64,000 bases of DNA, taken from contig OZ242351.1 in NCBI GenBank assembly GCA_965208675.1, positions 1,920,001 to 1,984,000 on the forward strand. The letters are read 5' to 3'. This document shows, piece by piece, positions 21,446 to 49,400 of this stretch. Source of the stretch: Candidatus Poribacteria bacterium (GTDB taxonomy: Bacteria; Poribacteria; WGA-4E; PCPOR2b). Each line of letters begins with the position of its first letter. Within the stretch, counting starts at the first letter, position 1. The notes under the pieces are model-generated. The model saw nothing but the letters and a program-made list of their open reading frames with translations, did not search any database and was not told the DNA's origin. A program made the translations under genes and the position numbers.

Positions 21446-24040
21446 CTAAAACAACGTCCGATATAGAACCTTGATGTTACGCCCCGGCTCCGGCATCACC
21501 GATTTAATTCTCGATAGGTGTTGACGGTATTCAGTATTGAATATATTCTCGACAGTGGTTACCAACTGATGTTGAAGATGCCACATTGAGAACACTACCT
21601 GCAAACCGGCGTCGTACACGAGGTACCCATCTGTCTTTTCTTCAAATTCGCCGAGCCGCTGCTGGTCATCCGAAAACCGCGCTGTCAAATGCAAATTTAA
21701 CGGTAGGGTAACGTATCGCAATGCCACTCGTCCGTTGAGCGGCGGGATGCGTTCGAGCGGCAACCCGCTTGCCGCCAATGACCCTTTGACGTAACTCAAG
21801 TGCGACTCTACATGAATTCGCGGGAAAATTGCGCCGCCAATACCGATCTCGGCGCCGTCGAGGATAGCGTCTTGCCCCTGGTATTGATATATCCACAGCC
21901 ATCCCGCTGCGCCGCTACCCCATTCCTTTTCCCCGGTTTGGGTCGGACTCAGATAGCCGTAAATCTGGTTGCGAAAAACGGCGAGATTGAGCTTCATTCG
22001 GTTGCCTGAATAACGCAGAAATGCCTCCGTACCGAAGCCATCCTCCGAACCGAGTTCAGCGTTGCCGATTTCATATGAAAATACTGCGAGATGCGGACCG
22101 TCTGAAAAGAGCTCTTCGATTCCCGGCGTGCGGAATGTCCTCATGAAGGTGGCGCCCAACCCCAAGTTTTCGTTCCATTGATAGATGCTTGAGACAGCGC
22201 CAGACACGCCTCCGAAGTCACGCCGCTCGACCTTTCCTGCACGTATTTCAACACCGTCGACAAACGGCTCAACCCTTTTGGTGTCGTAACGAAGCGCTGC
22301 CTGTAGCGTGAAGTCGTTGTATCGTTTCTGTTTGAAAAAGAACCCCGCCAAAGATATCTCCCGCGTGTGGGGTGTCCAGTAAAACCCACCCGTCGCATGG
22401 TCGCGATACTCGGTCCAGATCCCTGCAACTGCATCGCCGCGCAAGTGCAGCAGTGCGGTTGTGTTGTACGTCAACAAACCGAACTCCACGCCGAGCGTAT
22501 TGTTGGACTCATACTCTTGATGTTGATAGCGCGCATAGGTCGAATACAGCTTAACTTTTTCGAGAAACGATTCCTCAAACGCGTATTCCAGATTGCCCTC
22601 ATACCGTTGGCGATCGAGGTCAATCGTAACGCCATTGATGTGGCCTTCGGGCGAGCCGGGGATTCCATAGTCTGAACGGTAGCGACCGCCTGAAAGCCCA
22701 ATGTGCCCCCAATCTTTTACCACTGAAGCACCCGTTGAAAAATTGGTGTTTGATAATGAGGTGTTTTCTAGTATACCGACCGGTGTGTGAATATCGCCGG
22801 CGCGGCGGCGGTTCAGCTCTAACCGCCACGCGAGGTTGCCGACCGGAATCGTCACTCCTGTTGTCCCGGTCAGCCCTGAGTTGACCGATTCACTCTGAAA
22901 CGTGAAGTTCATCGTCGGCTGGTTGGGGAGAGTTTGCGGGATGGTCTCGCGTTTGACATTGACGACGCCTCCGAGTGTGCTTGAACCGTAAAGCAGCGAC
23001 GCCGGACCGCGCGTGATTTCAATCCTTGCCGCCGTAGTTGGGTCAATCGCAACCGCATGGTCAGCAGACGATGCCGATTTATCGCCTGAACGTCCGCCGT
23101 CTTCTAGGATAAGCAGACGGCCGCCTCCCATGCCTCGAACGACCGGACGTGCTGCCGATCGCCCCATCGTCCGCTGGGCGATACCCAACTCTCCACTAAG
23201 GGTCTCGGCAATCGTTGCGCCCATTTGTTGATTTAGTTTCTTATCGGAGAGTTTGAGGTCGGTTGTTTTCTCAAACTTAGCGAGTTCGTCATCGTCAGGT
23301 GTGACAATGATTTCACCGAGTTGGACTGTGCTGGGCTTTAATTTTACGTCCAGCATTATCGGATCCGCATTGACAGCAATTTTCTGATTTAATACTTCAT
23401 AGCCAACGCACATGAATTGCAGCGCATGTGTTCCCAACACAATTTGACCAAACTGAAACCGCCCAGTTTCATCAGTTCGAGACTGAATAGTCCTCCCCGC
23501 AGCAACAAGCGTAACCTCGACTTCAGCGATTGGATTCTCTGTCTCCGCATCAATCACTTCTCCTGAAACGGAAACGGTGCGGGACAGCGAAACTGCGTCT
23601 GCGCCATGCGTAAAAAGTATGGCAAGCAGGGAAAATATGACGAGTTTAGATTGAGTGAATTCTTCAACAATTCGATGGCAGAGGCGGTGATTGATTAGGT
23701 GAACAACGGCGAGCAGAAGTCCGCCCAAAGCCATAAAAATGACCTCGGTTCCCTCTGAAGCGTAAAATCGTGCGATAAAGATTAGAAATAATGCACTACC
23801 GAGCATTAGAAACACTCGCCATTTTCGGTGGTTTCTATAGCCCCATGTGAAACTGCCCACAGCAACTCCCACTGCGCCGAATACCAACGCCAACTCCGCT
23901 GACTCGCTGACAATAAACCCAAGCCCAATCAGCGGCAATACGGTCATCAAGAGCTGGGCTGCCATACAGTGGACGGCACAAGCAAACGATAAGCATGCGC
24001 CTACATTGTCCACGACTGCGTGATTCAGATATCTATTCAA
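21446..24040 (-). CDS. MerC domain fused in frame to a TonB-dependent receptor
   Basis: Residues 1-120 are MerC (SFACAVHC, 4 TM), followed by a signal-like segment, a carboxypeptidase-regulatory-like domain, plug (RPVVRG, RGPASLLYGS) and barrel end NIFNTEY..PGRN..F. Confidence 0.85.
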   Translation of the reverse strand: MNRYLNHAVVDNVGACLSFACAVHCMAAQLLMTVLPLIGLGFIVSESAELALVFGAVGVAVGSFTWGYRNHRKWRVFLMLGSALFLIFIARFYASEGTEVIFMALGGLLLAVVHLINHRLCHRIVEEFTQSKLVIFSLLAILFTHGADAVSLSRTVSVSGEVIDAETENPIAEVEVTLVAAGRTIQSRTDETGRFQFGQIVLGTHALQFMCVGYEVLNQKIAVNADPIMLDVKLKPSTVQLGEIIVTPDDDELAKFEKTTDLKLSDKKLNQQMGATIAETLSGELGIAQRTMGRSAARPVVRGMGGGRLLILEDGGRSGDKSASSADHAVAIDPTTAARIEITRGPASLLYGSSTLGGVVNVKRETIPQTLPNQPTMNFTFQSESVNSGLTGTTGVTIPVGNLAWRLELNRRRAGDIHTPVGILENTSLSNTNFSTGASVVKDWGHIGLSGGRYRSDYGIPGSPEGHINGVTIDLDRQRYEGNLEYAFEESFLEKVKLYSTYARYQHQEYESNNTLGVEFGLLTYNTTALLHLRGDAVAGIWTEYRDHATGGFYWTPHTREISLAGFFFKQKRYNDFTLQAALRYDTKRVEPFVDGVEIRAGKVERRDFGGVSGAVSSIYQWNENLGLGATFMRTFRTPGIEELFSDGPHLAVFSYEIGNAELGSEDGFGTEAFLRYSGNRMKLNLAVFRNQIYGYLSPTQTGEKEWGSGAAGWLWIYQYQGQDAILDGAEIGIGGAIFPRIHVESHLSYVKGSLAASGLPLERIPPLNGRVALRYVTLPLNLHLTARFSDDQQRLGEFEEKTDGYLVYDAGLQVVFSMWHLQHQLVTTVENIFNTEYRQHLSRIKSVMPEPGRNIKVLYRTLF

Positions 24041-24157
24041 TTATTGGCTCCTAACGTCATTCGTTACTGTTACCGGTATCGGCTTTGCCGGTCCGGCGTG
24101 CCAAATCCGGATTCATCGTTGGATTTGGCACGCTGACAGGCAAACCAAAGTTTTCGG

Positions 24158-24817
24158 TTACGGCGTAACCGTCACGGGAATCAAGAGCGCCGCCGTGAAA
24201 TCGGGGTGGTCGCCGTGCATGAGTTGGAGCTTGATTTCCGTTTGACCGGCTTTAAGCCCCGCCACCTCAAAGGTGAATTGCTCGGCAAGCTCATCGCCGT
24301 GATCATCATGATCATCGTCCTCATCGTGATCGTCATGTTCGTCGTGTTCATCGTCCTCATCGTGATCGTCCTCATCGTGATCATCGTGATCATCATGATC
24401 GTCGTGATCGTCGTGATCGTCGTGGTAAAGGTGTACCTCAATGATAGATGAATCATATCCGCTGAGCGCTAAAGCAAACACCTCTTCCTCGCCATGTTCA
24501 TGGTCGTGGTCGTGGTCGTCTTCCTCTTCCTCTTCCGGATTCTCAGGAAAAAATTCATGGCTGTCGTGGTCAAGGAACGCCGTCAGTACGTCGAGTTCCT
24601 CTCCGACTTTGAGCGTGATACCTCCCGTGTGCGCCCCTTCAAATTGACGGTATATCTCGTTCCCGTCAACCTTGAGCACAAAACCGTCCGCATCGGCATG
24701 AAAGGGTTCATCGTCATGGCCATCTTCGACAATAGGATTGTCGTCTTCGCCGCAAGCAGCGAAAAGTGCAACAGATACGAGTAACAAAAACGTAAAACGT
24801 AAAACAGGTGTAAACAT
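24158..24817 (-). CDS. His/Asp-rich putative metal-binding lipoprotein (copy 1)
   Basis: SD GGAGG before ATG 24817; lipobox FAAC; long (HDD)n tract. Confidence 0.88.
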   Translation of the reverse strand: MFTPVLRFTFLLLVSVALFAACGEDDNPIVEDGHDDEPFHADADGFVLKVDGNEIYRQFEGAHTGGITLKVGEELDVLTAFLDHDSHEFFPENPEEEEEDDHDHDHEHGEEEVFALALSGYDSSIIEVHLYHDDHDDHDDHDDHDDHDEDDHDEDDEHDEHDDHDEDDDHDDHGDELAEQFTFEVAGLKAGQTEIKLQLMHGDHPDFTAALLIPVTVTP

Positions 24818-24976
24818 TATTACCTCCAGATATAGATAGGCTGTATTTCCCGGCATCACGACTGGTGATACCACGAAAAATAGGCAGACTACCGCCGAGA
24901 CTGTATACAACTCAGCCGGGAAAGACAGATAATGATATGGTCAAATAAAACAGAGATTATGAGAACAACGAGCAGT

Positions 24977-25285
24977 TTAAACGGGGATAGTCGGCGGGGC
25001 ACGACTCCGGACACCCTTGTCAAGAATCGTGGAAATGAAATGTAATTTGATGATGGGTCTGTGAATTGAGATGCAGGTATTAAGATTGTTGACGTCAACG
25101 GCTTTAAGCTCTATGCCGACGTGGTTGGCATTGAAGAAACAAGCGGAGCAGTGTTCTGAACAGCAATCGACGTGCTCATGGTCGTGGGTAAGTGCAACAA
25201 GGTTTACCGTTATCAGATAATAAACGATTCCAATCGCTATTACCCAAGCCACGCTGTTCGGATTTATTCTAATCTTCCGCAACAC
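24977..25285 (-). CDS. DUF2946-like leader protein with CxxC and RAPP (copy 1)
   Basis: TM segment, HDHEH, CSAC, C-terminal RSRAPP; SD GAGGAG. Confidence 0.82.
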   Translation of the reverse strand: MLRKIRINPNSVAWVIAIGIVYYLITVNLVALTHDHEHVDCCSEHCSACFFNANHVGIELKAVDVNNLNTCISIHRPIIKLHFISTILDKGVRSRAPPTIPV

Positions 25286-25540
25286 TCCTCACCTCATTCA
25301 AACGTCCAAAAATTCGCAAACACAAAGCAGTATGCTATCACAAGCAGATTAGCATTGTCAAATTTATTTGTTTCAAAAATCGAACCCAGTGGGTATCATA
25401 CCCAGTTCATCACACTGATTGCGCTAATAAAATTGATGATAATTCCGACATCGGCAATAAAGTTCAGATTGAATGATTTCTGTCCTGTCTCTCCTAAAAA
25501 ACAGTACTATTTCCAATTTGGATTTAGCCTGCGCTTTGGC

Positions 25541-26830
25541 TTATTGGGGGTGCCTTTCGCTCCCGATAGTGTGGACGATCAGGTTAACACCCCATTCTAA
25601 CCACTTTTCATTCTCAGAATTTTCTCCCCACTTTAATCCAATCCCAGCGGCGTCGTAGTATACAGCGGTTCGTCCATTGAGTCTAAGCGCATAAAATTCG
25701 CCGCGCTTTTTGGCGACGCGCGGCACACCCTTCTTAAATTCAAAAAAGCTGCGGCAGACCGCATCCTTTCGATTAATCGGCACGAAATGTGCTGTTTGAC
25801 CGACAATCTTCCAGACCTCGAAGCGAATGGAGTTTGCCACCGGCCCATCAATCCCCCATGCGGTGGATATGTCCGAAAAAAGGAGCGTTCCGCCGCTCTG
25901 CAGGTAGGCTCGCAGATTCGCACGCTCCGTTTCGGAGAATGTAAACGCATCTCGTGCAGCGACGTAGATCAGTGGAATTTGGAGAATATCGGGGGAAGCG
26001 AGCGGCATCGTCTCAGGCAAAAGCTGCGTCCGTACCTTCGTCCATCTATTCATCGCATACACCAAGCGGTTCAAAGCTTGGGCACGAATGGCATCTGCCG
26101 CGTCCTCGTATTGGACAACCACGATATTGTAATACCCTGTAATCTCACGTCCGGTACCGCGTACCTCCACCTGAACCGCGGTTCCCGCGTTACTTTGAAT
26201 TTTGTCAAGGATGCCGGCGGCACGGCTTGGCGCAATTACCTTTCCCTCCGAAGCCATTCGTCCAACTATCGGCAAACTGCTCACTGACAAGTTGGGTTGG
26301 GAAACCGCATCCGCACTCAGCTCAACGTTCGTTTGGAATTCGGTTTCCGCCACCGGATTCAAGCTTACCCGAGCGGGGGAGTGCACGACTGTTGCTGATT
26401 GCGTTGCCTGGGGCCCCGTGCGAAGCGGCACCGCAGCAACACGCCGGGTAATTGGGCTCTTTCGATCCATGTCAACCGCGGCAATCTGCCGGGGTGGCCG
26501 TTTTCGGCGTTTGAGCGGCGATGGGTTCGGCAACGGCACAACAGCAACTTGTATGGCAGACTCCGCAATTGGGTGCGGAGTAGGCAACATCGCCACCCAT
26601 AAAAGGATAAAGGCGTTCAGCACAAGTGATAACAGCCACGCTGTTGCGGCGATTTTCCTCCGACGGGCGACCGTAGATAAGCGAGGCGCGGCTAATACTT
26701 CCTTTTTACGTCCGGCAGTGAACTCGGGGCGTGCCGGAAGCGATTCGAAATTTCGGTGCACCTTACGGCGTCTACGCTTTGCCCGAGTGTAATTCAAGCG
26801 AGCAACTTGCCGATAACGTGAGTGATACAT
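25541..26830 (-). CDS. Membrane-anchored DUF4159-like domain protein
   Basis: TM, Pro/Ala-rich linker, then PLIY..FSETERANLRAYLQSGGTLLFSD..GVNL. Confidence 0.75.
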   Translation of the reverse strand: MYHSRYRQVARLNYTRAKRRRRKVHRNFESLPARPEFTAGRKKEVLAAPRLSTVARRRKIAATAWLLSLVLNAFILLWVAMLPTPHPIAESAIQVAVVPLPNPSPLKRRKRPPRQIAAVDMDRKSPITRRVAAVPLRTGPQATQSATVVHSPARVSLNPVAETEFQTNVELSADAVSQPNLSVSSLPIVGRMASEGKVIAPSRAAGILDKIQSNAGTAVQVEVRGTGREITGYYNIVVVQYEDAADAIRAQALNRLVYAMNRWTKVRTQLLPETMPLASPDILQIPLIYVAARDAFTFSETERANLRAYLQSGGTLLFSDISTAWGIDGPVANSIRFEVWKIVGQTAHFVPINRKDAVCRSFFEFKKGVPRVAKKRGEFYALRLNGRTAVYYDAAGIGLKWGENSENEKWLEWGVNLIVHTIGSERHPQ

Positions 26831-32178: not shown

Positions 32179-35100
32179 CTACCTTCGTTTTTCGACTACG
32201 TAGTAAAGCACTGGTAGGACGAGCAGCGTCAAGAGCGTTGCGGTTATCATGCCGCCGCTGATGACGATTGCGAGCGGCTTCTGAAGTTCTGCGCCTGAAC
32301 CGTGGGCAAGTGCGAGCGGCAGCATGCCTAGCCCTGTAGTCAAGGCTGTCATCAACACTGGGCTGATGCGTTCTTCGGCGCCTTTCAACACGGCGTCGTA
32401 CAGTGAGATGCCTTCCGCACGAAGGCTGTTGATGTGCGTCACCAATATAATGCCATTTCGCACAGCGATGCCGAACAGGAGTATGAAGCCCACCATAGAT
32501 GGAATACTCAACACGCCGCCAGTGAGAAAAACGCTGATGACGCCGCCGATTAACGCGAGCGGCAGGTTCAGCATCACCAACAATGAAAGCCGCATTGAAC
32601 CCGTTGCAAGATACAACAGGATACAGATGCCGACGAGGACAAAGCCGGTTTGAACCAGAATCCGTTTTTGCGCCGCTTGTTGGCTTTCAAACTGTCCGCC
32701 GTAGGTGAGGAAATATGCTTCGGGCAGGACAACATTTTCGGTTATCTCACGTTGAACTTGAGCAATAAAGTTGCCTAAATCTCGATTTTGGACGTTGCAC
32801 TGAATCACAATCCGCCGAGATACGTTTTCTCGGTTGATGGTATTCGGCCCGAACCCGTAGCCGACATCGGCAACCTGTTTTAACTGAACGAAAGTTCCGG
32901 CAGGCGTTCTTAGTTTTAAGTCTCCGACAGATTCAATAGTGTTGACAAGCGTGGGGTCAATTCGAATCACGAGCGCGTACTGCCGTTGCCCTTGAATGAC
33001 TTGACTCACCGCTTCGCCTTTGAACGCTGTCTCTGCGAAATGCGTCACATCTTCGACGCTTAAGCCGTAGCGAGCTGCTTCACGCCGCTTGACCTTGATT
33101 TGGAGTTGCTCGACTTGCGCCTGTTGCTCCACCCACAGGTCCACCACGCCGGGAATTTCCGCGATAACGGCTCGAATCTCTTCGGCTTTCTGTCTGAGTG
33201 TGTTTAGATTTGGCCCAAACAGTTTCAACGCTACTTGTGCGTTTACACCCGACAGGAGGTGGTCAAGGCGATGCTGAATGGGTTGACCTATGGAGACGTG
33301 CACACCGGGGAAATTTTCCGCGGATAGCAAAGAACGCACTTCGGCAAGTAGTTCCTCACGTGTTTTATCACGCTCATCCGGTGGAATGAAATTCACTACG
33401 ATTTCGTGGGTATCCACGCTGTGGGCATGTTCGTCCGTTTCCGCCCGCCCGGTACGGCTGCTGACGCTTGTCACTTCTGGCAGCGTCAGGAGTCTGGATT
33501 CCATCTCACGACCGATGCGCGTGGATTCTCCCAACGAAGTTCCCGGCGGCGAGTGGACGGCTACAGAAAAGGTTGCTTCATCCATAACCGGAAGAAATTC
33601 GCGGCCCAAGCGGGGTATCGACATTATAGTCAAGGTAATCATCAACAACGCCAACGCAACAACAAGCCACCGCAGCTTCATGACGCAAGAGAGAACTGGC
33701 CGATATGCCCGTTTAATCCATCCAACCACGGGACTTTCTTTCGCAGCCGGAATTCCCGATTGCAATTCATTTTGCGAACGCTGTCTTCGGACACTTGTCA
33801 AGAGCAGGTCACTTAGTACGGGAACCACGGTTAGCGCGACGAGCAGCGATGCCGCCATTGAAATGACCACCGCCCAACCAAGTGGGCGGAACATACTACC
33901 CTCCATACCGCTCAAGTTGAACAGCGGTACGAAAACGAGGATGATGATCAGCGTCGCAAACACAATAGATGACCGAATCTCATCACTTGCGCGTGTTACG
34001 ACCTGCGTCGGTGTCTCGCCGTTTGCTTCGTCCCCGCCGCGGCGCCGGAAATGCTCCTGCAATCGGCGGTAGATGTTTTCGACGTAGACTATGGCGTCGT
34101 CAACAACCATACCAACGGCGATCGCCAAGCCAGCGAGCGTCATGATATTGAGCGTACCACCCTGCGAAATCAGGGCAATGACAGCTATGATTAGAGAGAG
34201 CGGAATGGCTGTCAGTGTAATTAAGGCGGTGCGAATGTTGAATAGAAAGATAGCCAAGATTATAACGACGAGAATTGCGCCGTCACGCAACGCATCTTTA
34301 ACAGTATCTACGGCGCGCCGTATCAGATCGGCTTGCGCATACTCGATTTTAACCTCAATGCCTTCCGGCAGCGACCTTTCCAGCGATTTTAGGACGGAAA
34401 CAACTTTGTCGTTTAGGCTTAAAGTATTGATCCCCGGTTGCTTAACCACCTTGCCCAAAACCGTCTCTTTCGCATTGCGGCTCCCTGCGCCGCGGCGTAT
34501 TTCTGGCAGTTCGCCTATCTTCACCCTCCCGATATCTTTGACCAGAATCGGCGTGCTGTGCCCCCGCACATCAATGACGACATTCTCAATGTCGGCAATT
34601 GTAGAGATACGGCCCAACCCGCGAATCATCAACTCGCGCGTATCCTTGATGAGAAATCCGCCCGCTGAATTTTCGTTGCTTTTCGCAAGGGCATCTGCAA
34701 CATCTTCCAGCGAAAGATTATAGTTTATCAACTGGGCAGGACTAACGAAGACTTGGTATTGCTTAACGTAGCCGCCGATGTTAATTACATTTGCGATACC
34801 GCCCTGGGACTGGAGTTGATAGCGGATGACCCAATCTGCGAGATCCCGCATTTCCATTTCGTCAAATTCCCCGGTTGCATCAACGACCGCGTACTCTAAA
34901 ATTTCGCCCAAAAGGGAGGAAGTCGGCAAGATAATCGGCGCATCCACGCCGTGAGGTAGATTCGGGGCAACGAGTTGAAGCCGCTCGGAGACCATTTGCC
35001 GCGCCAGAAAAATATCCATTCCCCAATCAAATTCAACGAATACCAGCGATAGGCCAACGGCGGAGGAAGACCGAACCCGCGAGACATACGGTGCACCGTT

Positions 35101-35319: not shown

Positions 35320-35340
35320 TTATTTGCCTCCTTGGTGCAC

Positions 35341-37453: not shown

Positions 37454-38734
37454 TCAGCCTCCTATGCTGTTCGACTGTTGAAAAATTTCTACGGAAGTTC
37501 CGATTGCGGCTTCAAGCTCTATCAACGCCTTGTGGAACGCCGCCAGCGCGTCCAGGTGCGCGAACCTAATCTTGATAAACTCATTCTGCATGAGTATAAC
37601 CTCTAAAATCCCGGCTTGACCTAATTCGTACGCTGTGCGCGTCAGTTCAAGGTTTTCATTTAGCAATTTCAGCAAATCGCCCTCGTAGAATTTGAGATTT
37701 TTTTGCGCAGCCTTCAGTGAAATGAACGCCCCCATCACCTCGCGGGTAATTTGCCGTTCTTTGTTGCTAATTTCAACGGTGTTGACTCCCTGTTCGGCTT
37801 TTGCAACATTAATCCCAACACGATTTCGGTCAAAAACCGGCAATGGAAATGAAAACTTTACACCGAATGCCCGCTCATCTGGGCTACGTTGTGCTATACC
37901 GGCTATACTCAGGTCTGGAATGTTCTCAGATTTTGCCAGCCGAAGTTCCCTGTCAGTCAACTGCGCGTCTAATCGCAGCGACGTTAGGTCTCGTCGATTT
38001 GCCAGAGCGCGAGTCGTTAATGCGTCGAGTGTCAGGGTTTGAAGCTGGTTCACCGGCATGTTTTCTGACAAACTCCCGACTGCGATAGGTGCTGCTTCAA
38101 GCGCGGCGCCCATCAGATTGTTGATTTCAAGTTGTGCGCGCTGCAATTCACCATCTAGTGCGGCCGCGCCGCGCAGCGCCGCTTGCAATTGAACCCTCGC
38201 CAGATTTAGCTGCGTTGCCGAAATATCTCCTGTTTCAAATTGAACCGTAGCGATGTTACGCATGTGTTCGTAGTGCTGAATGACTGCTTCGGTCAGTTTT
38301 AGTTTCTCTTGGACAAGCGCTAAATCGTAAAAACCGAGTTTCACCGACGTAGTGAGCAACCGGGATGCATCTGCGAGCTCAGCATTCACCTTTTCAAGTA
38401 AAATTTTTGCGATTCGTTTCCGGTGTCCGCGCTGCCCTCCGAGTTCAAAAGGTTTTGATAGTTCAAGTCGCTGCTCACCATCTATCCCCCCAACAAACTC
38501 GGTTTCTAGTTCAGGGTTACCAAGCAACGCTATGCCATCAATTCGGGCGCGTGCGACTTTGAGTTTTTCGCGTATCGCGCTAAGTTCCGGGTTGTCACGC
38601 ACCGCCGTCTGGATTGCAGTGTCAAGCGAAATTTTGCCTTCCCCCTCCGAAAAGGCAGTTGGAATTTTCACGGTGCTTAATAAGAATAGGTACATGCTCA
38701 CCATTATGAGAATGCGGCAAGGTGTGGTTTTCAT
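37454..38734 (-). CDS. TolC/CzcC-family outer membrane efflux protein
   Basis: Signal peptide; NPEL, PLPVFDRN and AYELG..ILEV motifs. Confidence 0.92.
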   Translation of the reverse strand: MKTTPCRILIMVSMYLFLLSTVKIPTAFSEGEGKISLDTAIQTAVRDNPELSAIREKLKVARARIDGIALLGNPELETEFVGGIDGEQRLELSKPFELGGQRGHRKRIAKILLEKVNAELADASRLLTTSVKLGFYDLALVQEKLKLTEAVIQHYEHMRNIATVQFETGDISATQLNLARVQLQAALRGAAALDGELQRAQLEINNLMGAALEAAPIAVGSLSENMPVNQLQTLTLDALTTRALANRRDLTSLRLDAQLTDRELRLAKSENIPDLSIAGIAQRSPDERAFGVKFSFPLPVFDRNRVGINVAKAEQGVNTVEISNKERQITREVMGAFISLKAAQKNLKFYEGDLLKLLNENLELTRTAYELGQAGILEVILMQNEFIKIRFAHLDALAAFHKALIELEAAIGTSVEIFQQSNSIGG

Positions 38735-39530: not shown

Positions 39531-40150
39531 CTACTCGACGTTGTTGTAAATTATACTCTTGTCAGTAACGAGCGTTGAGATTTTACAATTAATATGACTT
39601 GAGACCCAATCTTTATAACCTATGAATGACGGTTTATCAAAGATTTTAGCTAAGACCTTACCGCCTCTTTGTAGCAAACCCACCACTGAAACTTTAACAT
39701 CAGTCCACCTATTCTTCTTTTTCCATTTTGCCCGCCTACCTATATATGCTTCATCAGCTTCATTGATGCCAGATAGGACATGGTCATTCTCGTCTATAGC
39801 TTTTCTGATTTTCATCATCATACTCAAGCAAGTCTTCTGGCTCATATGTAGGTGTTCAGCCATTTGACAGCTAGAGATTCATTTTTTAGCATTAATCATT
39901 AGAGCTATTGCGAGAAACCAATTAGGCAGGGGTACTTTCGTACCATGAAAAATAGTTTTGGAAGTCGTAGATAATGATGAGTTGCAATGGTAGCAATTCC
40001 AAAGTGGAGAAATAATATGACGATATTTTCTACCAACTTTTAGCGAGCCACAATGAGGGCAACAAAATATTTTGGGAAACCGTTTTTTTTCAATGAATTT
40101 AAGGCAGGCTTCCTCAGTATAAAATTTTTGCTAACATTGAATAAATCCAT
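39531..40150 (-). mobile_element. IS1595-family transposase remnant, frameshifted and 3'-truncated
   Basis: Hand translation: TEEACL..CPHCGS..C..C..TIFHGTKVPL..WFLAI..ISSCQMA..EADEAYIG..LVTD; at least two 1-nt frameshifts; low GC. Confidence 0.88.
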
Positions 40151-41338: not shown

Positions 41339-41923
41339 TCAGGGTTTCCAATCAATGTGATCATTGACATTGTATTCCTCGAAGCCTTCAAGAATGTAAC
41401 GACAGAATTCCTCGGTTTCACGATCGCCTTCGGTTTTTGCAAGTTCATACAGCCGAATGAACATTTTCTTACCTGTTTCAGTCTGCTTGTAATTTTTCTT
41501 ACGGAAATTATGAGTTGCACAAAGGGTTTGACCGTTCTCGATAGTTGCTCCGCCACCTAAGTCTTTCGGCTTGATATGGTCCGCATGGATTTCGACGCCA
41601 TCGAGTCGTCCTTTCCCGCATATCACACAGCGGTAGTTGTCTCGCTTTAAAATCTGCTCTTTTTGTGCGGCTGTGAAATCTTCTAATTCAGGGTTAGTAA
41701 CTAGTTCGGGATCGTATTTATAAACACCCTTCCGAAGTTTTACCAGTTTCCCTTCTTGAGACAATTTTCTGATTGCCCTATCGGGATCTCTAAAAGTTTT
41801 ACCTGTCCTATTTGGGTATTCGCTGGTTAACCAGTCCACGACTTCCGGATGCGCAATAGGACGATTCGGATTCTTCACAAAATACTCCATCACTAGGTCA
41901 GCTTGAGTAATCGTTTTTGTCAT
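41339..41923 (-). CDS. HNH endonuclease, probable type II restriction enzyme
   Basis: RDNYRCVICG..HADHIKP..GG..NGQTLC..HN; ATGA overlap with the upstream methyltransferase. Confidence 0.88.
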   Translation of the reverse strand: MTKTITQADLVMEYFVKNPNRPIAHPEVVDWLTSEYPNRTGKTFRDPDRAIRKLSQEGKLVKLRKGVYKYDPELVTNPELEDFTAAQKEQILKRDNYRCVICGKGRLDGVEIHADHIKPKDLGGGATIENGQTLCATHNFRKKNYKQTETGKKMFIRLYELAKTEGDRETEEFCRYILEGFEEYNVNDHIDWKP

Positions 41924-42744
41924 TCGGATTCCCTCAACATTGTAAACAAACCTCTACTATCCAAAATCCGTTTTCGAGCTAATTCGCAATAACCGCTGTC
42001 AATTTCAACGCCAACACCGATGCGCCGGTTATTGTGTGCTTCTACTAAGGTTGTTCCGCTGCCTAAAAAGGGATCGAACACAACGTCTCCGACGTAGCTA
42101 AACAACTTTATGCAACGATAGGGTAACTCACGCGGAAAGGGAGCGGGGTGTCCAACCCGTTTCTTGCTCTCGCCATTGAATGTCCACACGCCATTTGTCC
42201 ATTCCATAAATTCATTGCGTGAAATGTCTGACTCTTTACTGCCGAACTCTTTCTTCCAATTCCCCTTATACAAGATGACGATCAGCTCAACCGGGGCAAT
42301 GACAAATGGTGCGGATGCGGACATCCAAGAGCCCCACGCCGTTCGACGAGAGATGTTTCCTTCATTCCAAACAATCGTGGCGTGGTAGTTCCAACCCACG
42401 CTCTGCGCAATTGTAGTGAGATCAGCCCCCACGCTACGGTGCCCACCCTTGTTTTTATCGAGTGGAATATTCAGTAACATGCGAGCGTGCGGTTTACTCC
42501 ATTTGTAACAATTCCCTATCCACTGCCTACTAAAATCCAAGTAATTTTCATAACTTATCGCGTCATCATTCGAATCGTAATCAATACCAACATTGTAGGG
42601 CGGTGATGTAACGATTAAGTCAATAAATTCTCCTGTAAACAGATCGAGTTGACATGTGTCGTCATTGATAATATACACACCCAATTCCTCAAAGAAAGGA
42701 GCGACTTTGAAGTGAGCGTGTTTATCCAACTCTGGGCTTTGCAT
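41920..42744 (-). CDS. DNA N6-adenine/N4-cytosine methyltransferase, beta class
   Basis: TSPPY precedes HPAPFP and DPFLGSGTT. Confidence 0.93.
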   Translation of the reverse strand: MQSPELDKHAHFKVAPFFEELGVYIINDDTCQLDLFTGEFIDLIVTSPPYNVGIDYDSNDDAISYENYLDFSRQWIGNCYKWSKPHARMLLNIPLDKNKGGHRSVGADLTTIAQSVGWNYHATIVWNEGNISRRTAWGSWMSASAPFVIAPVELIVILYKGNWKKEFGSKESDISRNEFMEWTNGVWTFNGESKKRVGHPAPFPRELPYRCIKLFSYVGDVVFDPFLGSGTTLVEAHNNRRIGVGVEIDSGYCELARKRILDSRGLFTMLRESE

Positions 42745-43802: not shown

Positions 43803-44576
43803 TTAGGATTTTCGAAGTTTGAGTGCATCTGCTTTTAAACGATCGAGCTCAAGGTGGTAGATGCCGACAAGTATATCGCCCTCAAACTTTTGTCCAACAC
43901 GAAAGGTGCCGCGAAGCGAAATTGGCACATCTTGATAGCTGCGGATTTTCTTTTTTTGCGGAACCTCTACATACACCCATTCGTTAAGAAGCGGGATTGC
44001 GCCGAAACAGCATGCCATTTGGTCTTTGAGCAACACGAAAGTTCGAACGTTATCGAATTCACCTTCAAGCGGCAACATGAACCCTTCAATCTCAATTTTC
44101 GACCCGTTCAACGCTCTTATTTGCGGCGGAATTTCCTCGTCGAGGTTCAGCGTGGCGACGTAATCCGGATCGTCCAATCTTGCCCAGTTTGGCTCCCTGA
44201 TTCGATAGCTAGTGAGCGTATTGAAGGTCAGTGATTCATATTCGCCCGTGCGCTTGCCAATCCGTTCAACTTCAACTTTTGGAGGCTGGGAGTCCGGCAC
44301 CGCGCCCGGCTGCGTATCCACACTAATCTCCGACGCGGGGTTCACGTCCTCGCGCGGTTTGGCATCGCCAGATTCTGCGACCGCCAGCGGGGCACCCTGT
44401 ACGTCAACGTGCTTAACGATTGACGCTGATTGACCGCTTACCTTCCTAAGGGCGCGAATCGGATGTGGTTCCGGTAACATTTGAGAAAGACCGAGCGCCA
44501 GCGCAACAACAACTACACTCGTAATTGCAAAAGGAAGCCAAGAGCTTCGTCGTTTCTCCGTTTTAAGCTGCTTCAT
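43803..44576 (-). CDS. DUF3299-like membrane-anchored protein
   Basis: LNGSKIEIEGFMLPL..FVL..ACCFG..P..NEWVYV. Confidence 0.8.
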   Translation of the reverse strand: MKQLKTEKRRSSWLPFAITSVVVVALALGLSQMLPEPHPIRALRKVSGQSASIVKHVDVQGAPLAVAESGDAKPREDVNPASEISVDTQPGAVPDSQPPKVEVERIGKRTGEYESLTFNTLTSYRIREPNWARLDDPDYVATLNLDEEIPPQIRALNGSKIEIEGFMLPLEGEFDNVRTFVLLKDQMACCFGAIPLLNEWVYVEVPQKKKIRSYQDVPISLRGTFRVGQKFEGDILVGIYHLELDRLKADALKLRKS

Positions 44577-44592: not shown

Positions 44593-45114
44593 CTAATGGT
44601 GATGATGTTCACCGTGCTCACCCTCGTTGCCTTCGGGAAAATCAAAATCAACGTCAGTGAAGTGCTGCCCCTTCACCGAAATTGACGTGATTTGCGCGTG
44701 AAAATCCGTCACGCCCTTGAGCGCGTCGGATTGTCCCTCATATTGAGAGGTATCACCTTCGGTTTCTCCTGTTAAAACGTTTGCAGCGGCTTTGAGTTGC
44801 AAAGTAATTGACTGCCCAGATTTCAACCGATTTAATTTGAGTTCGATGGTGTTCTGCGTGAGGCGCACCGGTTTTTCCGCCTCGCTATCTAGGACATAAC
44901 CGGTGAGTTTTCCGGTCTTTTCTTCCAGGACAAGTTCAACGTGCGCGAACTCTTCGCCCAACACGACCAGTGTCCCACCGTGCGGCGCCGTATGATGATG
45001 GTGGGCATCTGGCTTCTGTTTACCGTCGTGCGTTCCTTTTTTCTCGCAACCGGATTGGACGACGGCAATTGCTAAAATCGACATCAATGCCGCGATTGCG
45101 TTTTGGAGTTTCAT
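44593..45114 (-). CDS. His-rich putative metal-binding lipoprotein
   Basis: Lipobox QSGC; HHHHTAPHGG..HVELV; C-terminal HGEHHHH. Confidence 0.82.
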   Translation of the reverse strand: MKLQNAIAALMSILAIAVVQSGCEKKGTHDGKQKPDAHHHHTAPHGGTLVVLGEEFAHVELVLEEKTGKLTGYVLDSEAEKPVRLTQNTIELKLNRLKSGQSITLQLKAAANVLTGETEGDTSQYEGQSDALKGVTDFHAQITSISVKGQHFTDVDFDFPEGNEGEHGEHHHH

Positions 45115-45437: not shown

Positions 45438-45557
45438 TTATAGTCATTTAGGTTAATATTTACACAAGGAGTGATTGACTGATCGATAATCGAGGCTAGG
45501 AAGCCTCTCCCACAAACCAATGCGTAAATGTATAATTTTTAGTTGCAATGACTATAA
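45438..45557. mobile_element. MITE-like element of 120 bp with 11-bp terminal inverted repeats
   Basis: TTATAGTCATT...AATGACTATAA; internal REP-like hairpin GAGGCTAGGAAGCCTC; second copy at 1670. Confidence 0.75.
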
Positions 45558-46805
45558 GTTAGCCGCAACATCCGTCCGATACGCTTTGACGGCAGGCAAA
45601 ACGCCCGCGGCTGCACCTATGAGTATAACACAAACTGGTGCGATTATGAACGCAGGATGAAAACTTAACAGGTCCAATACGATTCCGGTTTGTGCACGAA
45701 CAATTGCCGACGCTGCCGTGAAGATTACGCCGTAAACGATGAAACCGATGACGACGCCCATTGCGGTGATAGATGCGGCTTCCAGCACGATGACGGAAAA
45801 AACCGTTTTCCGGCGCGCGCCGAGTGACCGTAAAATGGCGAGCTCACGCCGGCGTTCGTTAATCGAATTATACACACTTGCGAGAATTGAGCCTGCCGCC
45901 ACCACAACAACAAGATAAGAAACCAGCGCCAAAATTTGGTTCATCCAACCAATTTTATCAAACAGTCTCGCCATCACCGCGCCTATCGGCCATGCGAGAG
46001 TTGCCGCCTTACCTTGTTTATTTATTGTGGCGTCCATCATGAAGCCGATTTGCGGATTGCGAAACTTGATCATAACGGCACTGACCTCTTTGTGCTCGTC
46101 GGGGATTTCTTGACCGGGTTGAGCAACATAATCCTCCCCACTTCCGCGCAACACATGCCCCTCCATCCGGTAAATCCCTTCAATCGGAATCCAGATGACG
46201 CGGTCAGACGGAGAATTGGTCGGTTTAAGCACACCGACGACGGTATATTGCTCGTCATGCCGCATCGACTCATCAAATACTAATCCGTGATAGGGGTTAA
46301 AGTTATCGCCTACCTTCAAGCCTAACTTATCCGCGGTATAGCTTCCCAAAACCGCTTCTTGCCGAGCCGGATTGAAAAAACGTCCGCCGCCTTGAGTCTG
46401 AAATCGAACACCATCACGGTACTCAAACTCCGTGAATAACGTCCCAGTGGTGCCGACGATGCGGAATCCGTGATAGTTGTCTCCGAGTGCGTAAGGCACG
46501 GCGAGTTCGACGCGTGGGTCGTCTCTCATCGCCTGATACATCGCCCATGGGATATTGCCGGGTGAGGTTTCGAGATGAAAGACGGTGTTCAATACGAGTT
46601 GCAGCGGGCTGCCGCGCGCACCGATAACCGCATCAAAGCCGATCTGACCGCCCGTAAAGGCGGCTACAGATTGCGCTTTGATACCGATGACAGCCATAAC
46701 GAGCCCGGTTCCGAGCGCTACCGACAGCGCAGCGATAAGCGTCGATAGGGCGTGTTGCCGCAGGCTGCGTCGAACGATAAATAACAAGCTCACGCGTTTT
46801 TTCAT
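45552..46805 (-). CDS. MacB/FtsX-type ABC permease (ZrgC-like)
   Basis: GARGSPLQLVLNTVFH, LGDNYHGFRIVGT and ERRRELAILRSLGA motifs. Confidence 0.9.
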   Translation of the reverse strand: MKKRVSLLFIVRRSLRQHALSTLIAALSVALGTGLVMAVIGIKAQSVAAFTGGQIGFDAVIGARGSPLQLVLNTVFHLETSPGNIPWAMYQAMRDDPRVELAVPYALGDNYHGFRIVGTTGTLFTEFEYRDGVRFQTQGGGRFFNPARQEAVLGSYTADKLGLKVGDNFNPYHGLVFDESMRHDEQYTVVGVLKPTNSPSDRVIWIPIEGIYRMEGHVLRGSGEDYVAQPGQEIPDEHKEVSAVMIKFRNPQIGFMMDATINKQGKAATLAWPIGAVMARLFDKIGWMNQILALVSYLVVVVAAGSILASVYNSINERRRELAILRSLGARRKTVFSVIVLEAASITAMGVVIGFIVYGVIFTAASAIVRAQTGIVLDLLSFHPAFIIAPVCVILIGAAAGVLPAVKAYRTDVAANL

Positions 46806-46921: not shown

Positions 46922-47584
46922 TCATGCACGATTCACTTGTGCGAAATCTGCTGCCTCCTCAAACTGCTCCAATATTCCGACATCGTGGCTAACGGTGAGC
47001 AACGCGGCGTTGTTTTCATGGCAAATCTCGCGGATAAGCGCAATCGCTTGGTTAGCGTGGTGATAATCCAGATTTCCAGTCGGTTCATCGGCAAGCACCA
47101 AGCGCGGACGGTTGGCGATAGCGCGGGCAACTGCAACACGCTGCTGTTGCCCAACGGATAATTGCGATGGCGGATATCCCATTCGATCTCCCAACCGGAC
47201 CCGTTCAAGCAAGTGTTGGGCGAACTCTACATCAACGCCCTTCCCAAACATCATACCGAGCACGACGTTTTCCAATGCGGTGTAACCGTGGAGCAGATTG
47301 AAGGTCTGGAAGATGTAGCCTATATGGCTGGCGCGCAGTGAATCACGCCCAGACTCGGAGAGGGCGGTAATCTCCTCACCATCAATAACGATTTGTCCGC
47401 TATCGGCGTGCAGAATTCCAGCGATGAGATTGAGAAACGTGGTTTTTCCGGTGCCGCTGCTTCCCTTGAGCGCCATCTGCGAACCTGTCTCCAGCTCGAA
47501 ATGGGGCACATCAACGATGCGATTCTGTGTACCTTCAGGCGAAAAATAAGCTTTTTCGAGATTAGCGATTGTCAAGAGCGGCAT
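46922..47584 (-). CDS. ABC transporter ATP-binding protein (LolD/ZrgB-like)
   Basis: GSSGTGKT, LSVGQQQR and LADEPTGNLD motifs. Confidence 0.94.
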   Translation of the reverse strand: MPLLTIANLEKAYFSPEGTQNRIVDVPHFELETGSQMALKGSSGTGKTTFLNLIAGILHADSGQIVIDGEEITALSESGRDSLRASHIGYIFQTFNLLHGYTALENVVLGMMFGKGVDVEFAQHLLERVRLGDRMGYPPSQLSVGQQQRVAVARAIANRPRLVLADEPTGNLDYHHANQAIALIREICHENNAALLTVSHDVGILEQFEEAADFAQVNRA

Positions 47585-47596
47585 AACACACCGTGA

Positions 47597-47995
47597 TCAG
47601 TTGTTCGACAATTTGCAGAGTTGACACATACGGCAGAGGCGGCGATTGATGAGGTGAACAAGCGCGAGCAGCAGTCCGCCCATAGCCATGAAGATGACTT
47701 CGGTACCCTCTGAAGCGTGAAATCGTGCGATAAAGATTAGAATTAATGCGCCACCGAGCATTAGAAACACTCGCCATTTTCGGTGGTGCCAATAGCCCCA
47801 ACTTAGACTGCCGACAGCAACTCCCACTGCGCCGACAACCAACGCCAACTCCGCTGACTCACTGAGAATAAATCCAAGCCCAATCAGCGGCAATACGGTC
47901 ATCAAGAGCGGGGCTGCCATACAGTGGACAGCGCACGCAAACGATAGGCATGCGCCCACATTGTCCACGACTGCGTGATTCAGATATCTGTTCAA
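47597..47995 (-). CDS. merC: MerC-domain membrane protein (stand-alone copy)
   Basis: DNVG..LSFACAVHC..P, four TM helices, HLIN..C..C; SD AGGAG before TTG. Confidence 0.85.
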   Translation of the reverse strand: MNRYLNHAVVDNVGACLSFACAVHCMAAPLLMTVLPLIGLGFILSESAELALVVGAVGVAVGSLSWGYWHHRKWRVFLMLGGALILIFIARFHASEGTEVIFMAMGGLLLALVHLINRRLCRMCQLCKLSNN

Positions 47996-48112
47996 TTATT
48001 GGCTCCTAACGTCATTCGTTACTGTTACCGGTATCGGATTTGCCGGTCCGGCGTGCCAAAACCGCATTTATCATTGGATTTGGCACGCTGACAGGCAAAC
48101 CAAAGTTTTCGG

Positions 48113-48742
48113 TTACGGCGTAACCGTTACGGGAATCAAGAGCGCCGCCGTGAAATCGGGGTGGTCGCCGTGCATGAGTTGGAGCTTGATTTCCGTTTGA
48201 CCGGCTTTAAGCCCCTTCACCTCAAAGGTGAATTGATCGGCAAGCTCATCGCCGTGTTCATCGTGTTCATCATGCTCATCGTGATCTTCGTCATCGTCGT
48301 GATCTTCGTCCTCATCGTGATCGTCGTCATCATCGTGATCGTCGTGATCGTCGTGGTAAAGGTGTATCTCAATGATTGATGAATCGTATCCGCTGAGCGC
48401 TAAAGCAAACACCTCTTCCTCGCCATGTTCGTGGTCGTGGTCGTGGTCGTCTTCCTCTTCCGGATTCTCAGGAAAAAATTCATGGCTGTCGTGGTCAAGG
48501 AACGCGGTCAGAACGTCGAGTTCATCTCCGACTTTGAGCGTGATACCTCCCGAATGCGTCCCTTCGAATTGACGGTATATCTCGTTCCCGTCAACCTTGA
48601 GGACAAAACCGTCTGCATCGGCGTGAAATGGTTCATCGTCATGGCCATTTTCGACAATAGGATTATCGTCTTCGCCGCATGCAGCGAAAAGTGCAATAGA
48701 TACGAGTAACAACAACGTAAAACGTAAAACAGGTGTAAACAT
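48113..48742 (-). CDS. His/Asp-rich putative metal-binding lipoprotein (copy 2)
   Basis: Near-identical to 24158-24817 apart from a shorter His/Asp tract. Confidence 0.88.
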   Translation of the reverse strand: MFTPVLRFTLLLLVSIALFAACGEDDNPIVENGHDDEPFHADADGFVLKVDGNEIYRQFEGTHSGGITLKVGDELDVLTAFLDHDSHEFFPENPEEEDDHDHDHEHGEEEVFALALSGYDSSIIEIHLYHDDHDDHDDDDDHDEDEDHDDDEDHDEHDEHDEHGDELADQFTFEVKGLKAGQTEIKLQLMHGDHPDFTAALLIPVTVTP

Positions 48743-48901
48743 TATTACCTCCAGACATAGATTGGCTGAATTTCCCGGCATCACGACTGATGAAACAACG
48801 AAAAATAGGCAAATTGCTACCCAAACCGTATACAACTCAGCCGGGAAAGGCAGATAAAGATTTGGTCAAATTAAACAGAGATTATGAGAACAACGAGCAG
48901 C

Positions 48902-49207
48902 TTAAACGGGGAAAATAGGCGGGGCACGACTCCGGACACTGTTGTCAAGGATCGTGAAAACGAAATGAAATTTGATGATGGGTCTGTGAATTGAGATGCA
49001 TGCATCGAATTTGGTGACGTCAACGGGGGTGAGTTCAATACCGACGTGGTTGGCATTGAAGAAACAGGCGGAGCAGTGCTCTGAATTGACATCGACGTGC
49101 TCATGGTCGTGCGCGAGTGAGATAAGGTTTACCGTTATCAGATAATAGACGATTCCAATCAATATCACCCAGAGAATGGGAGTGAAATGGATTTTAACCT
49201 TTTGCAA
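48902..49207 (-). CDS. DUF2946-like leader protein with CxxC and RAPP (copy 2)
   Basis: TM, HDHEH, CSAC and RSRAPP. Confidence 0.82.
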   Translation of the reverse strand: MQKVKIHFTPILWVILIGIVYYLITVNLISLAHDHEHVDVNSEHCSACFFNANHVGIELTPVDVTKFDACISIHRPIIKFHFVFTILDNSVRSRAPPIFPV

Positions 49208-49400
49208 GACTCCTTACCTCATTCGAACGTTCAAAAATTCGCCAACACAGCATTGTATTTTAGCACAACCGATTGGCTTTGTCCAATTTTTTTGATTCAA
49301 AATCGACAGGAATGGGTATCAAACCAAATCCATTGCACTGCCGCTTAAGTACCTTGACAGAACTGGTTATAATCGTTTATTCTAATTTAGAGCGAAGCCT

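Follow-up and report, generated by a model that had tools for sequence, protein, structure and literature searches.

The stretch of DNA analysed here, hereafter the window, comprises 64,000 nucleotides (nt) of the genome of a Candidatus Poribacteria bacterium of the sponge-symbiont type (assembly GCA_965208675.1, contig OZ242351.1, positions 1,920,001 to 1,984,000). It contains two copies of a gene cassette, each composed of a promoter, a leader open reading frame (ORF) of 101 or 102 amino acids (aa), a gene for a His/Asp-rich lipoprotein, and a gene of the Pfam family MerC. The leader, whose product ends shortly after the motif RAPP, is the main subject of this analysis. Copy 1 of the cassette continues into a TonB-dependent receptor. 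Copy 2 continues into an ATP-binding cassette (ABC) ATPase, a permease with FtsX and MacB_PCD domains, a His-rich lipoprotein, and a DUF3299 protein. All relevant genes are located on the minus strand, and positions are those of the window (Table 1) unless a locus handle precedes them.

An earlier description of this DNA, made from its letters alone and referred to below as the sequence-only reading, had reported two direct repeats with this gene content. Global alignment of positions 23677–25417 with 47632–49335 agrees with it: 1524 of 1704 columns (89.4%) are identical, 37 columns contain gaps, and both copies carry a Pfam MerC gene. A repeat search of the window returned the direct repeat pairs 23677–23976/47632–47931 and 24499–24798/48424–48723 (300 nt each) as well as 24329–24530/48260–48461 (202 nt). 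Identity between the copies increases from about 74% at the promoter and the leader N-terminus to 91–98% in the lipoprotein and merC genes. The gene-by-gene ratios of non-synonymous to synonymous divergence (dN/dS), a comparison proposed in the same reading, were 0.44 for the leader (dS 0.39), 0.24 for the lipoprotein (dS 0.16), and 0.19 for merC (dS 0.27). These values indicate that purifying selection acts on both copies.

The longest version of the copy 1 leader begins at a GTG codon; relatives share a TTG start, located here at position 25282, which yields a product of 101 aa. In the 102-aa numbering, a helix (approximately residues 8–32) is followed by H34-x-H36, C46xxC49, R95APP98, four further residues, and the stop codon. 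The tails after RAPP read TIPV and IFPV in the two copies. Arg and Lys residues precede the helix, while acidic and His residues come after it. The AlphaFold2 model of the leader shows a membrane helix at residues 8–32 with a predicted local distance difference test score (pLDDT) of 85–89, and the remainder is poorly structured. Comparison of 53 leaders, with identities as low as 21%, revealed six invariant residues, namely H35, C45, C48, R94, P96, and P97 in the 101-aa numbering. H33, H54, S93, and A95 are nearly invariant, and one leader has RSPP in place of RAPP.

The distance between CxxC and RAPP is 45 residues in both leaders of the window. A search pattern of the form CxxC-N(38-52)-RAPP, which permitted any spacing from 38 to 52 residues, identified leader-like ORFs in the window and in 20 related loci, and all 31 of them display a spacing of 44–45. 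A further 79 loci were found via the lipoprotein, and 75 of these had sufficient upstream DNA for judging. In 71 of the 75, a leader-type ORF ends within 600 nt of the lipoprotein gene on its upstream side, with a spacing of 44 (64 cases) or 45 (seven cases). The motif itself is rare: RAPP is present in 64 of the 29,359 reading frames of at least 60 aa in the genome and falls within the last 16 residues in 13 of these, among which only the two leaders look like genes. Leaders were detected in 124 of 176 genomes of the phylum. Two leader copies from relatives (L043 11696–11989 and G040:C27:14801–15106) contain an in-frame TGA, for which decay and recoding are both possible explanations.

Table 1. 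Features of the two cassettes, of the operons that they head, and of the efflux operon between them. All positions refer to the 64,000-nt window.
Feature	Positions	Strand	Basis
Promoter, copy 1: TTGACA-18-TAGCAT, TG-extended -10	25332–25361	-	Consensus scan
Promoter, copy 2: TGGACA-17-TAAAAT, TG-extended -10	49257–49285	-	Consensus scan
Leader, copy 1, 102 aa from GTG	24977–25285	-	ORF and comparison with relatives
Leader, copy 2, 101 aa, TTG start	48902–49207	-	ORF
Putative metal-binding residues, copy 1: HDHEH codons (25172–25186) and CSAC codons (25139–25150)	25139–25186	-	Conservation in 53 leaders
RAPP codons, copy 1, presumed arrest site	24992–25003	-	Conservation, spacing
RAPP codons, copy 2	48917–48928	-	ORF
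Spacer, copy 1, 159 nt; conserved blocks UUUCCCGG / CCGGGAAA; Shine-Dalgarno sequence CUGGAGG	24818–24976	-	Alignment of 15 spacers
Spacer, copy 2, 159 nt	48743–48901	-	Alignment
C-rich, G-poor stretch, copy 1, 78 nt, candidate Rho-loading (rut-like) region	24922–24999	-	C/G 2.56 (maximum over many windows)
His/Asp-rich lipoprotein, copy 1, 219 aa, lipobox LFAAC	24158–24817	-	ORF
His/Asp-rich lipoprotein, copy 2, 209 aa	48113–48742	-	ORF
Stem-loop between lipoprotein gene and merC, copy 1	24079–24148	-	Fold of 24035–24165
Stem-loop between lipoprotein gene and merC, copy 2	48034–48103	-	Fold of 47990–48120
MerC + ATPase relic + receptor in a single ORF, 864 aa	21446–24040	-	Pfam, ORF, alignments
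merC, copy 2, 132 aa, own stop, C-terminal CRMCQLC tail	47597–47995	-	Pfam MerC, 79.1 bits
ABC ATPase, LolD/MacB-like	46922–47584	-	Pfam, NCBIfam
FtsX + MacB_PCD permease, split MacB type	45552–46805	-	Pfam
His-rich lipoprotein (HHHH...HGEHHHH), no family	44593–45114	-	ORF
DUF3299 protein	43803–44576	-	PF11736, 32 bits (cut-off 22)
Outer-membrane factor	37454–38734	-	Efflux operon
CusB/CzcB-like adaptor, 675 aa	35341–37368	-	Efflux operon
CusA/CzcA-family pump of the resistance-nodulation-division type	32179–35319	-	TIGR00914, 898.9 bits (cut-off 701)

The sequence-only reading had likened the leader to the DUF2946 proteins CruR and CutF, and both are described systems (PMC9426467; bioRxiv 10.1101/2025.02.05.636593). 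The CruR paper defines DUF2946 by CXXC and RAPP with 45 intervening residues, a number conserved within one to two (PMC9426467). Three residues separate RAPP from the C terminus, more than 95% of the members have an export signal, and the gene is the first in its operon, with a long intergenic distance (PMC9426467). The leaders examined here possess CXXC, RAPP near the C terminus, the spacing of about 45 residues, and an N-terminal membrane segment; they are first in the operon, have a promoter directly upstream, and are followed by a long spacer. The copper-homeostasis operon partners of DUF2946 genes were not found among the neighbours scanned.

Profile searches gave a divided picture. The leaders of the window have no match to the DUF2946 model PF11162 at E-values up to 10, a PF11162 scan of the whole genome was also empty, and no other Pfam or NCBIfam family was found for them. 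A profile built from 11 leaders and searched against 1.84 billion representative proteins produced 18 matches. Ten of these have PF11162 scores below the gathering score of 23.7 bits, each to the C-terminal end of the model. One distant member, P0025, passes this cut-off with 27.5 bits; the leader profile that found it (E 4.3e-4) had been built without it. Because of P0025 and the ten sub-threshold matches, we read the leader family as a divergent branch of DUF2946, which by the Pfam test itself is not a member. The proposed kinship is supported by the CxxC/RAPP architecture and by P0025, but not by a direct Pfam match. An hhalign comparison of the leader profile with P0025 was circular, as P0025 was part of the profile, and was not used as evidence.

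Both promoters are sigma-70-like, and the -35 and extended -10 elements line up across 22 upstream regions of leaders from relatives. No operator-like palindrome was seen at the conserved leader promoters in these 22 aligned regions. The promoter is strong and apparently unregulated.

The spacers between leader and lipoprotein gene are identical at 140 of 159 positions without gaps; across 26 cases, the length of the spacer ranges from 130 to 424 nt. In copy 1, a C-rich, G-poor stretch begins at the RAPP codons and extends into the spacer. The highest C/G ratio over the many 78-nt windows compared is 2.56 in both copies, which falls into the top 0.9% of random 78-nt windows of the genome. The most C-rich, G-poor 78-nt window begins 2–6 nt past the first base of the Arg codon in 21 of 26 leaders. 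A gene for Rho is present in the genome (611 bits). A weak hairpin with a U-run in the spacer was considered as a conserved terminator and rejected, as it is deleted in a sister genus.

The first gene behind the spacer encodes, in both copies, a lipoprotein that carries the lipobox LFAAC and extended runs of His and Asp. Six His residues (H40, H106, H127, H163, H191, and H194) are invariant in 20 lipoprotein sequences. AlphaFold2 predicts a beta-sandwich of low confidence (mean pLDDT 59), for which Foldseek returned only generic Ig-like sandwiches and none with E of 0.001 or below. No family for these lipoproteins was found in Pfam, NCBIfam, or PDB sequences, and a protein atlas search yielded only clusters without names. 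It is the leader together with this lipoprotein that forms the constant unit across the phylum (71 of 75 loci), while MerC follows the receptor in most genomes. The combination of leader, lipoprotein, and merC that had been pointed out from the sequence is thus present in both copies of the window, but only its first two genes make up the core.

The spacer between the lipoprotein gene and merC is identical at 112 of 117 positions between the copies, which exceeds the identity at synonymous sites. It can fold into a stem-loop of -48.2 kcal/mol in copy 1 (z -5.4; none of 200 shuffles was as good) and -44.1 kcal/mol in copy 2 (z -3.7). A stem-loop of comparable stability (z -3.8), with a partly different stem sequence, occurs at the same place in a sister genus. 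By analogy with stem-loops that protect the upstream part of a transcript, it may have this role here. The MerC parts match PF03203 over its entire length (model positions 1–108 of 108), scoring 75.1 and 79.1 bits (cut-off 27.6). Pfam scans of the neighbours detected no mer operon family; merA and merR were not searched genome-wide.

The genes behind the cassettes were expected from the sequence-only reading to serve metal transport with a zinc flavour, and family searches support this. Among the 24 NCBIfam families matched by the receptor, the best is the zinc receptor ZnuD (NF038289; 184.8 bits, with a curated cut-off of 950), and the copper receptor model scores 55.8 bits. Its best PDB match is also ZnuD (4rdr, 4.2e-29), as compared to 3e-8 for OprC. 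The receptor appears to be ZnuD-like, without being a proven member of ZnuD. In a sister family, six of seven loci contain the series leader, lipoprotein, receptor, merC, ZnuA-family protein, (second leader), and COG0523 GTPase. The best family of this binding protein is AztC (219 bits, cut-off 350), and the GTPase matches the YjiA, CobW, and ZigA models (ZigA 194 bits, cut-off 600). At L047 (6451–9297), and likewise at L048–L050, the second leader heads genes for a Cys-rich protein of 163 aa without a known family, a COG0523 GTPase, and a WD40 protein. The copper partners listed for cruR operons (PCuAC, ScoC, YcnI, CopC, PepSY_TM, MbnPH) were all absent from the neighbours scanned.

The operon of copy 2 combines a split MacB system, a DUF3299 protein, and a His-rich periplasmic protein, which is the combination of the PA4063–PA4066/ZrgABCDE-type cluster; we take PA4066 to carry DUF3299. 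The His-rich lipoprotein showed no significant match to a PDB chain (best E 0.18), although the PDB presumably holds the structure of PA4063. The PA4063–PA4066 cluster is zinc-repressed via Zur (PMC11481552). Zinc is our best guess for the metal; all zinc-type scores are below their cut-offs, and another metal could apply.

What looks like an ordinary zinc cluster lies elsewhere in the same genome, outside the window (G000:C1:2657102–2664745, that is, 2.657–2.665 Mb). A Fur-family gene and a ZnuA gene are divergently oriented there, accompanied by two COG0523 genes. The spacer between znuA and fur carries a Zur-box-like palindrome, ATATGTTATATTATAACATAA. This palindrome, a putative operator defined from a single site, has no match with up to three mismatches in the window. 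A 10-nt motif common to the window and the znuA-fur spacer, TTGAACGTTC, was discarded, since it is at chance level genome-wide (65 occurrences of GAACGTTC, 75 expected).

In Bordetella, arrest of the ribosome at RAPP of CruR excludes Rho, and copper relieves the arrest (PMC9426467). By analogy, we propose that the cassette works as a CruR-type attenuator based on translational arrest, which responds to metal (probably zinc), is coupled to Rho, and is ON at low metal, and we give this reading a probability of about 0.6. It starts from the anatomy, the conservation, the gene company, and the presence of Rho, all of which are direct observations. The nascent leader would anchor in the membrane by its N-terminal helix and display HxH...CxxC, with two His and two Cys as ligands, 45 residues ahead of RAPP. 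The ribosome would then pause with the two Pro codons of RAPP in its P and A sites, and transcription and translation downstream would continue, so that the operon is ON. Binding of the cognate metal, most likely Zn(II), to the nascent chain would relieve the arrest and let the ribosome leave at the stop codon four codons later. Its exit would bare the RNA from the RAPP codons onward, which is rich in C and poor in G, and Rho would terminate transcription within the 159-nt spacer, which turns the operon OFF. The set of genes controlled in this way would serve metal acquisition: the His/Asp-rich lipoprotein as first gene, MerC as inner-membrane permease, and the ZnuD-like receptor, to which the second operon would add the split MacB-type ABC system, the His-rich lipoprotein, and the DUF3299 protein. 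Stalling, the identity of the metal, the sign of the response, and the coupling to Rho are the parts that we infer. A Rho-based switch is preferred because Rho is present, the C-rich window is placed at the RAPP codons, and pairing with the Shine-Dalgarno (SD) sequence, considered below, is unsupported. Low metal as the ON state also fits genes of the uptake type.

A number of observations weigh against this proposal. The C/G figure is a maximum over many windows, and a ribosome paused at RAPP would shield just about the first 15 nt of the C-rich stretch, so that it is hard to see how Rho would be blocked. The leaders of the window and the genome as a whole lack a PF11162 match. As to the metal, the ZnuD, AztC, and ZigA scores are all under their curated cut-offs, CxxC is well known as a Cu(I) motif, and copper is what the two studied relatives sense. 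Nor does the response have one sign in the known systems: metal relieves the arrest in CruR and induces it in CutF. Finally, PA4064/65 has been argued to be an exporter (PMC11481552), which bears on the idea of uptake. The MacB-type ABC system had been taken in the sequence-only reading for the inner-membrane step of uptake; with this Pseudomonas counterpart in mind, such a role does not necessarily follow, and MerC is the better candidate for the importer.

A switch of this type might instead sense copper or a further thiophilic metal (Co, Ni, or Cd), in which case the operons would be for acquiring copper, as they are in Bordetella. Apart from CxxC being the copper-sensing motif of CruR and CutF and all published cases being copper, this would agree with the movement of soft metals by MerC family members, with the CusA/CzcA-type efflux operon between the cassettes, and with the sub-threshold zinc-type scores. 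We nevertheless consider it unlikely, given the absence of cruR-operon copper partners from the neighbours scanned, a receptor whose scores for ZnuD far exceed those for OprC and the copper receptor model, ZnuA-family and COG0523 genes in the operons of relatives, and an invariant HxH that supplements CxxC. An opposite logic is realized in CutF, the other studied DUF2946 member: metal would induce the arrest, and the paused ribosome would open RNA masking the ribosome-binding site of the lipoprotein gene, with no role for Rho. RNAalifold analysis of 15 spacers indeed pairs UCCR in the leader codons with YGGA of the SD sequence, and these pairs form in 92.8% of cells compared to at most 58% when slid. 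The consensus is weak (-2.99 kcal/mol), however, as is the covariation, with two pairs altered on both sides. Shuffled sequences pair as well as the leader 3' end does with the SD region (duplex energies, mean z 0.14; none of 26 cases at the 5% level), and folds of the entire spacer have ordinary stability (z -1.35 and +1.12). Masking of the SD sequence by the leader 3' end was therefore rejected as unsupported, duplex energies being like those of shuffles in 26 of 26 cases. Moreover, the SD sequence of the lipoprotein gene is approximately 150 nt from the stall site, beyond the reach of a paused ribosome, and it makes little sense for metal to turn uptake-type genes ON. We regard a CutF-like mode of action as improbable.

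It is also conceivable that the leader is a working membrane-anchored periplasmic metal-binding protein, such as a chaperone or a partner of the lipoprotein, and that RAPP has no regulatory role. Conservation of the leader at a dN/dS of 0.44, its stable membrane helix, and the initial proposal of CutF as a chaperone are in line with such a function. It would leave unexplained, however, why RAPP and its fixed distance from CxxC are invariant while the intervening residues diverge freely, why RAPP is rare in the proteome, and why the gene is always first in the operon with a long spacer after it; in addition, the region behind the helix is predicted to be disordered. This makes a purely structural or chaperone role very improbable. 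Misassembly, in which strain variants were collapsed in one contig, had been named in the sequence-only reading as a possible source of the repeat. Contigs from short reads do end in the His/Asp repeats and at the repeat borders. The source genome, however, is one 4.89-Mb contig, and another closed genome of the same genus has both cassettes, 22.5 kb apart. One public sequencing run contains both junctions: a contig with zero differences spans the merC-receptor junction (22600–23827), and a second contig covers 23677–23827 with 14 differences and then runs into copy-2 sequence. A run from a different study also spans the merC-receptor junction (22600–23747). None of the sequencing runs listed for this DNA is an RNA run. 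The copies further differ in their flanks, their leaders (71% aa identity), and their merC ends. An artefact is hardly credible on these grounds, and the repeat is not one.

A wider version of the attenuator proposal is held only tentatively and is, on balance, doubtful. It would make the leader the first zinc-sensing nascent-peptide switch, in which Zn(II) bound by two His and two Cys tunes the RAPP arrest and which replaces or supplements Zur for the zinc-acquisition operons throughout the phylum. In this genus it would also drive a single ORF for an inner-membrane MerC permease and an outer-membrane receptor, the product of which would be cut by signal peptidase at an internal signal peptide.

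This single ORF is a feature beyond the sequence-only reading: merC of copy 1 is in frame with the receptor gene. The 864-aa product comprises MerC (residues 11–119), the relic RIVEEFT, a signal peptide (about 126–149, ...THGADA), and then CarboxypepD_reg, Plug, and TonB-dependent barrel domains. Neither a stop codon nor ATG, GTG, or TTG occurs between merC and the receptor signal peptide in the window or in the sister genome, and two indels, together 24 nt, distinguish the two junctions. Among longer relatives of MerC, four fused clusters of 872, 872, 864, and 865 aa with 8, 6, 1, and 13 member sequences, respectively, were found; they display full-length identities down to 68% and four different in-frame junctions. 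A fifth cluster, P0032 (786 aa, with a shorter N-terminus), repeats the junction type of the window. The hydropathy profile of the MerC part shows four membrane segments, with the positive loop RNHRKWR between the second and the third, and then the signal-peptide core. With both ends of MerC in the cytoplasm, as in its published topology, the receptor signal peptide would insert correctly and could be cleaved by signal peptidase. We know of no description of a maintained fusion between an inner-membrane protein and an outer-membrane receptor, although no literature search was made for it.

The gene orders in relatives give hints at the history of the two operons. Two sister genera have leader, lipoprotein, merC, ABC ATPase, permease, His-rich lipoprotein, and DUF3299 in a row, and, 6–7 kb on, a second leader directly before the receptor. 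The order in another family of the order is leader, lipoprotein, receptor, and merC; only in the genus studied here do lipoprotein and merC genes also precede the receptor. In a third genome of the genus (L040), a fragment of the ABC ATPase (residues 22–66, with Walker A) is in frame with the receptor signal peptide, and the junction in the window (...LCH-RIVEEFT-QSKL...) keeps the end of this fragment. This relic of the ATPase gene indicates that the head of the ABC operon (leader, lipoprotein, merC, and the start of the ATPase gene) was copied before the receptor gene and trimmed later, and that later deletions fused merC in frame to the receptor. In L040 (9868–10237), merC has an internal deletion and encodes 91 aa, and the receptor start is located inside the ATPase relic, which results in an extension of about 30 residues with Walker A before the signal peptide. 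The receptor of one sister genus starts with the first 15 or so codons of the lipoprotein signal peptide, so that the joining of a head to the receptor has happened more than once.

The sequence-only reading had inferred the duplication of one head module. A piece with leader, lipoprotein, merC, and part of the ATPase gene was indeed copied, but the presence of two leaders on two operons is the older state, as seen in the sister genera. The novelty in this genus is that the copied piece replaced the earlier head of the receptor. The leaders of both genomes of the genus pair by context in the leader tree (supports 100/98 and 85/68), which places the duplication before the split of these genomes; across genera, leaders group by genus. 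In the lipoprotein tree, the two copies from one genome form a cluster (81/88), a pattern suggestive of gene conversion between them.

The stretch of about 22 kb between the cassettes looks inserted, because both operons adjoin in the sister genera. It contains a fragment of an IS1595-type transposase (39531–39863) and an HNH endonuclease gene beside an N6/N4 DNA methylase gene (41339–42744, minus strand). The heavy-metal efflux operon (32179–38734, minus strand) is also located here. No leader-like ORF was seen in front of this operon, and a 141-aa ORF upstream of it looks spurious. The cassettes are flanked by genes for an ankyrin-repeat protein and a DUF4159 protein (50205–50819 and 25541–26830, both on the minus strand).

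Nascent-peptide sensing of metal has so far been demonstrated for copper alone, in CruR and CutF. If our reading is true, the principle would apply to a second metal as well, through a branch of leaders with HxH and zinc-type partners that occurs in 124 of 176 genomes of the phylum. The construct required for a test is small, comprising about 100 codons and the 159-nt spacer. The gene neighbourhoods would also link a MerC-family permease and an unnamed family of His/Asp-rich lipoproteins to receptor-mediated metal uptake, and the occurrence of the MerC-receptor fusion in four protein clusters indicates that it is maintained. We found no paper that joins the RAPP motif with zinc and nothing relevant on zinc in Poribacteria. 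The papers found on CruR or DUF2946 since 2023 all concern copper; supplementary tables may list related leaders. According to the authors of the CruR paper, no riboswitch is known for Cu or Zn (PMC9426467).

The closest described system is CruR (Bp2923) of Bordetella pertussis, the small first gene of an operon with a TonB-dependent receptor (PMC9426467). Both leaders possess an N-terminal export or membrane signal, CxxC and RAPP 45 residues apart near the C terminus, a product predicted to be poorly structured, and a long spacer with C-rich RNA near the leader end. Unlike CruR, the leader in the window has no direct PF11162 match, measures about 100 aa instead of about 145, and carries an invariant HxH directly after the helix. 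RAPP is located four residues from its end (4–11 in other leaders) as compared to three in CruR. The organisms are Poribacteria and Proteobacteria, respectively, and the neighbours are of the zinc type here and of the copper type in Bordetella. Also, the first controlled gene here encodes a His/Asp-rich lipoprotein, and each genome has two copies.

CutF of Rhodobacter capsulatus likewise is an exported DUF2946-type leader; its nascent chain senses metal beyond the cytoplasm, and stalling takes place at a proline motif at its C terminus (bioRxiv 10.1101/2025.02.05.636593). Copper induces the arrest in that case; the ribosome, once paused, opens a stem-loop that covers the following ribosome-binding site. 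CutF differs in having CxxxC and PPP, in its need for elongation factor P, and in turning a detoxifying oxidase ON with copper. Its stem-loop is adjacent, whereas the SD sequence in the window is about 150 nt away and its pairing with the leader is unsupported. A wider group is formed by the RAPP/RGPP arrest peptides (SecM, ApdA, ApdP, and upstream ORFs), which share with the present leader the C-terminal RAPP, an N-terminal localisation signal, and a position upstream of the regulated gene; those studied monitor Sec/YidC or copper (PMC12992588). The 2025 survey of this group reports RAPP/RGPP upstream ORFs in front of TonB-dependent receptors and copper genes, and documents CruR arrest in vitro, the P and A sites being occupied by the two Pro codons (PMC12992588). 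It names metal- and copper-related classes, and the word zinc is absent from the main text.

The controlled genes have their own counterparts. ZnuD of Neisseria meningitidis (4rdr, NF038289) is the top PDB and NCBIfam match of the receptor, which differs from it by the additional N-terminal CarboxypepD_reg domain, by its position behind MerC in a fusion, and by a score far below the cut-off. The operon of copy 2 resembles PA4063–PA4066 of Pseudomonas aeruginosa and zrgABCDE in combining a periplasmic protein rich in His with a separate ABC ATPase, a permease of the MacB type, and a fourth protein (PMC11481552). The order here is ATPase, permease, His-rich lipoprotein, and DUF3299 behind leader, lipoprotein, and merC, and the window contains no match to the Zur-box-like palindrome of the znuA-fur spacer. 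With MerC of mer operons (PF03203), the proteins of the window share the full-length Pfam match and the Cys-rich first helix and tail; they differ in keeping company with an uptake-type receptor and an ABC system, and one of the two merC genes is fused to that receptor.

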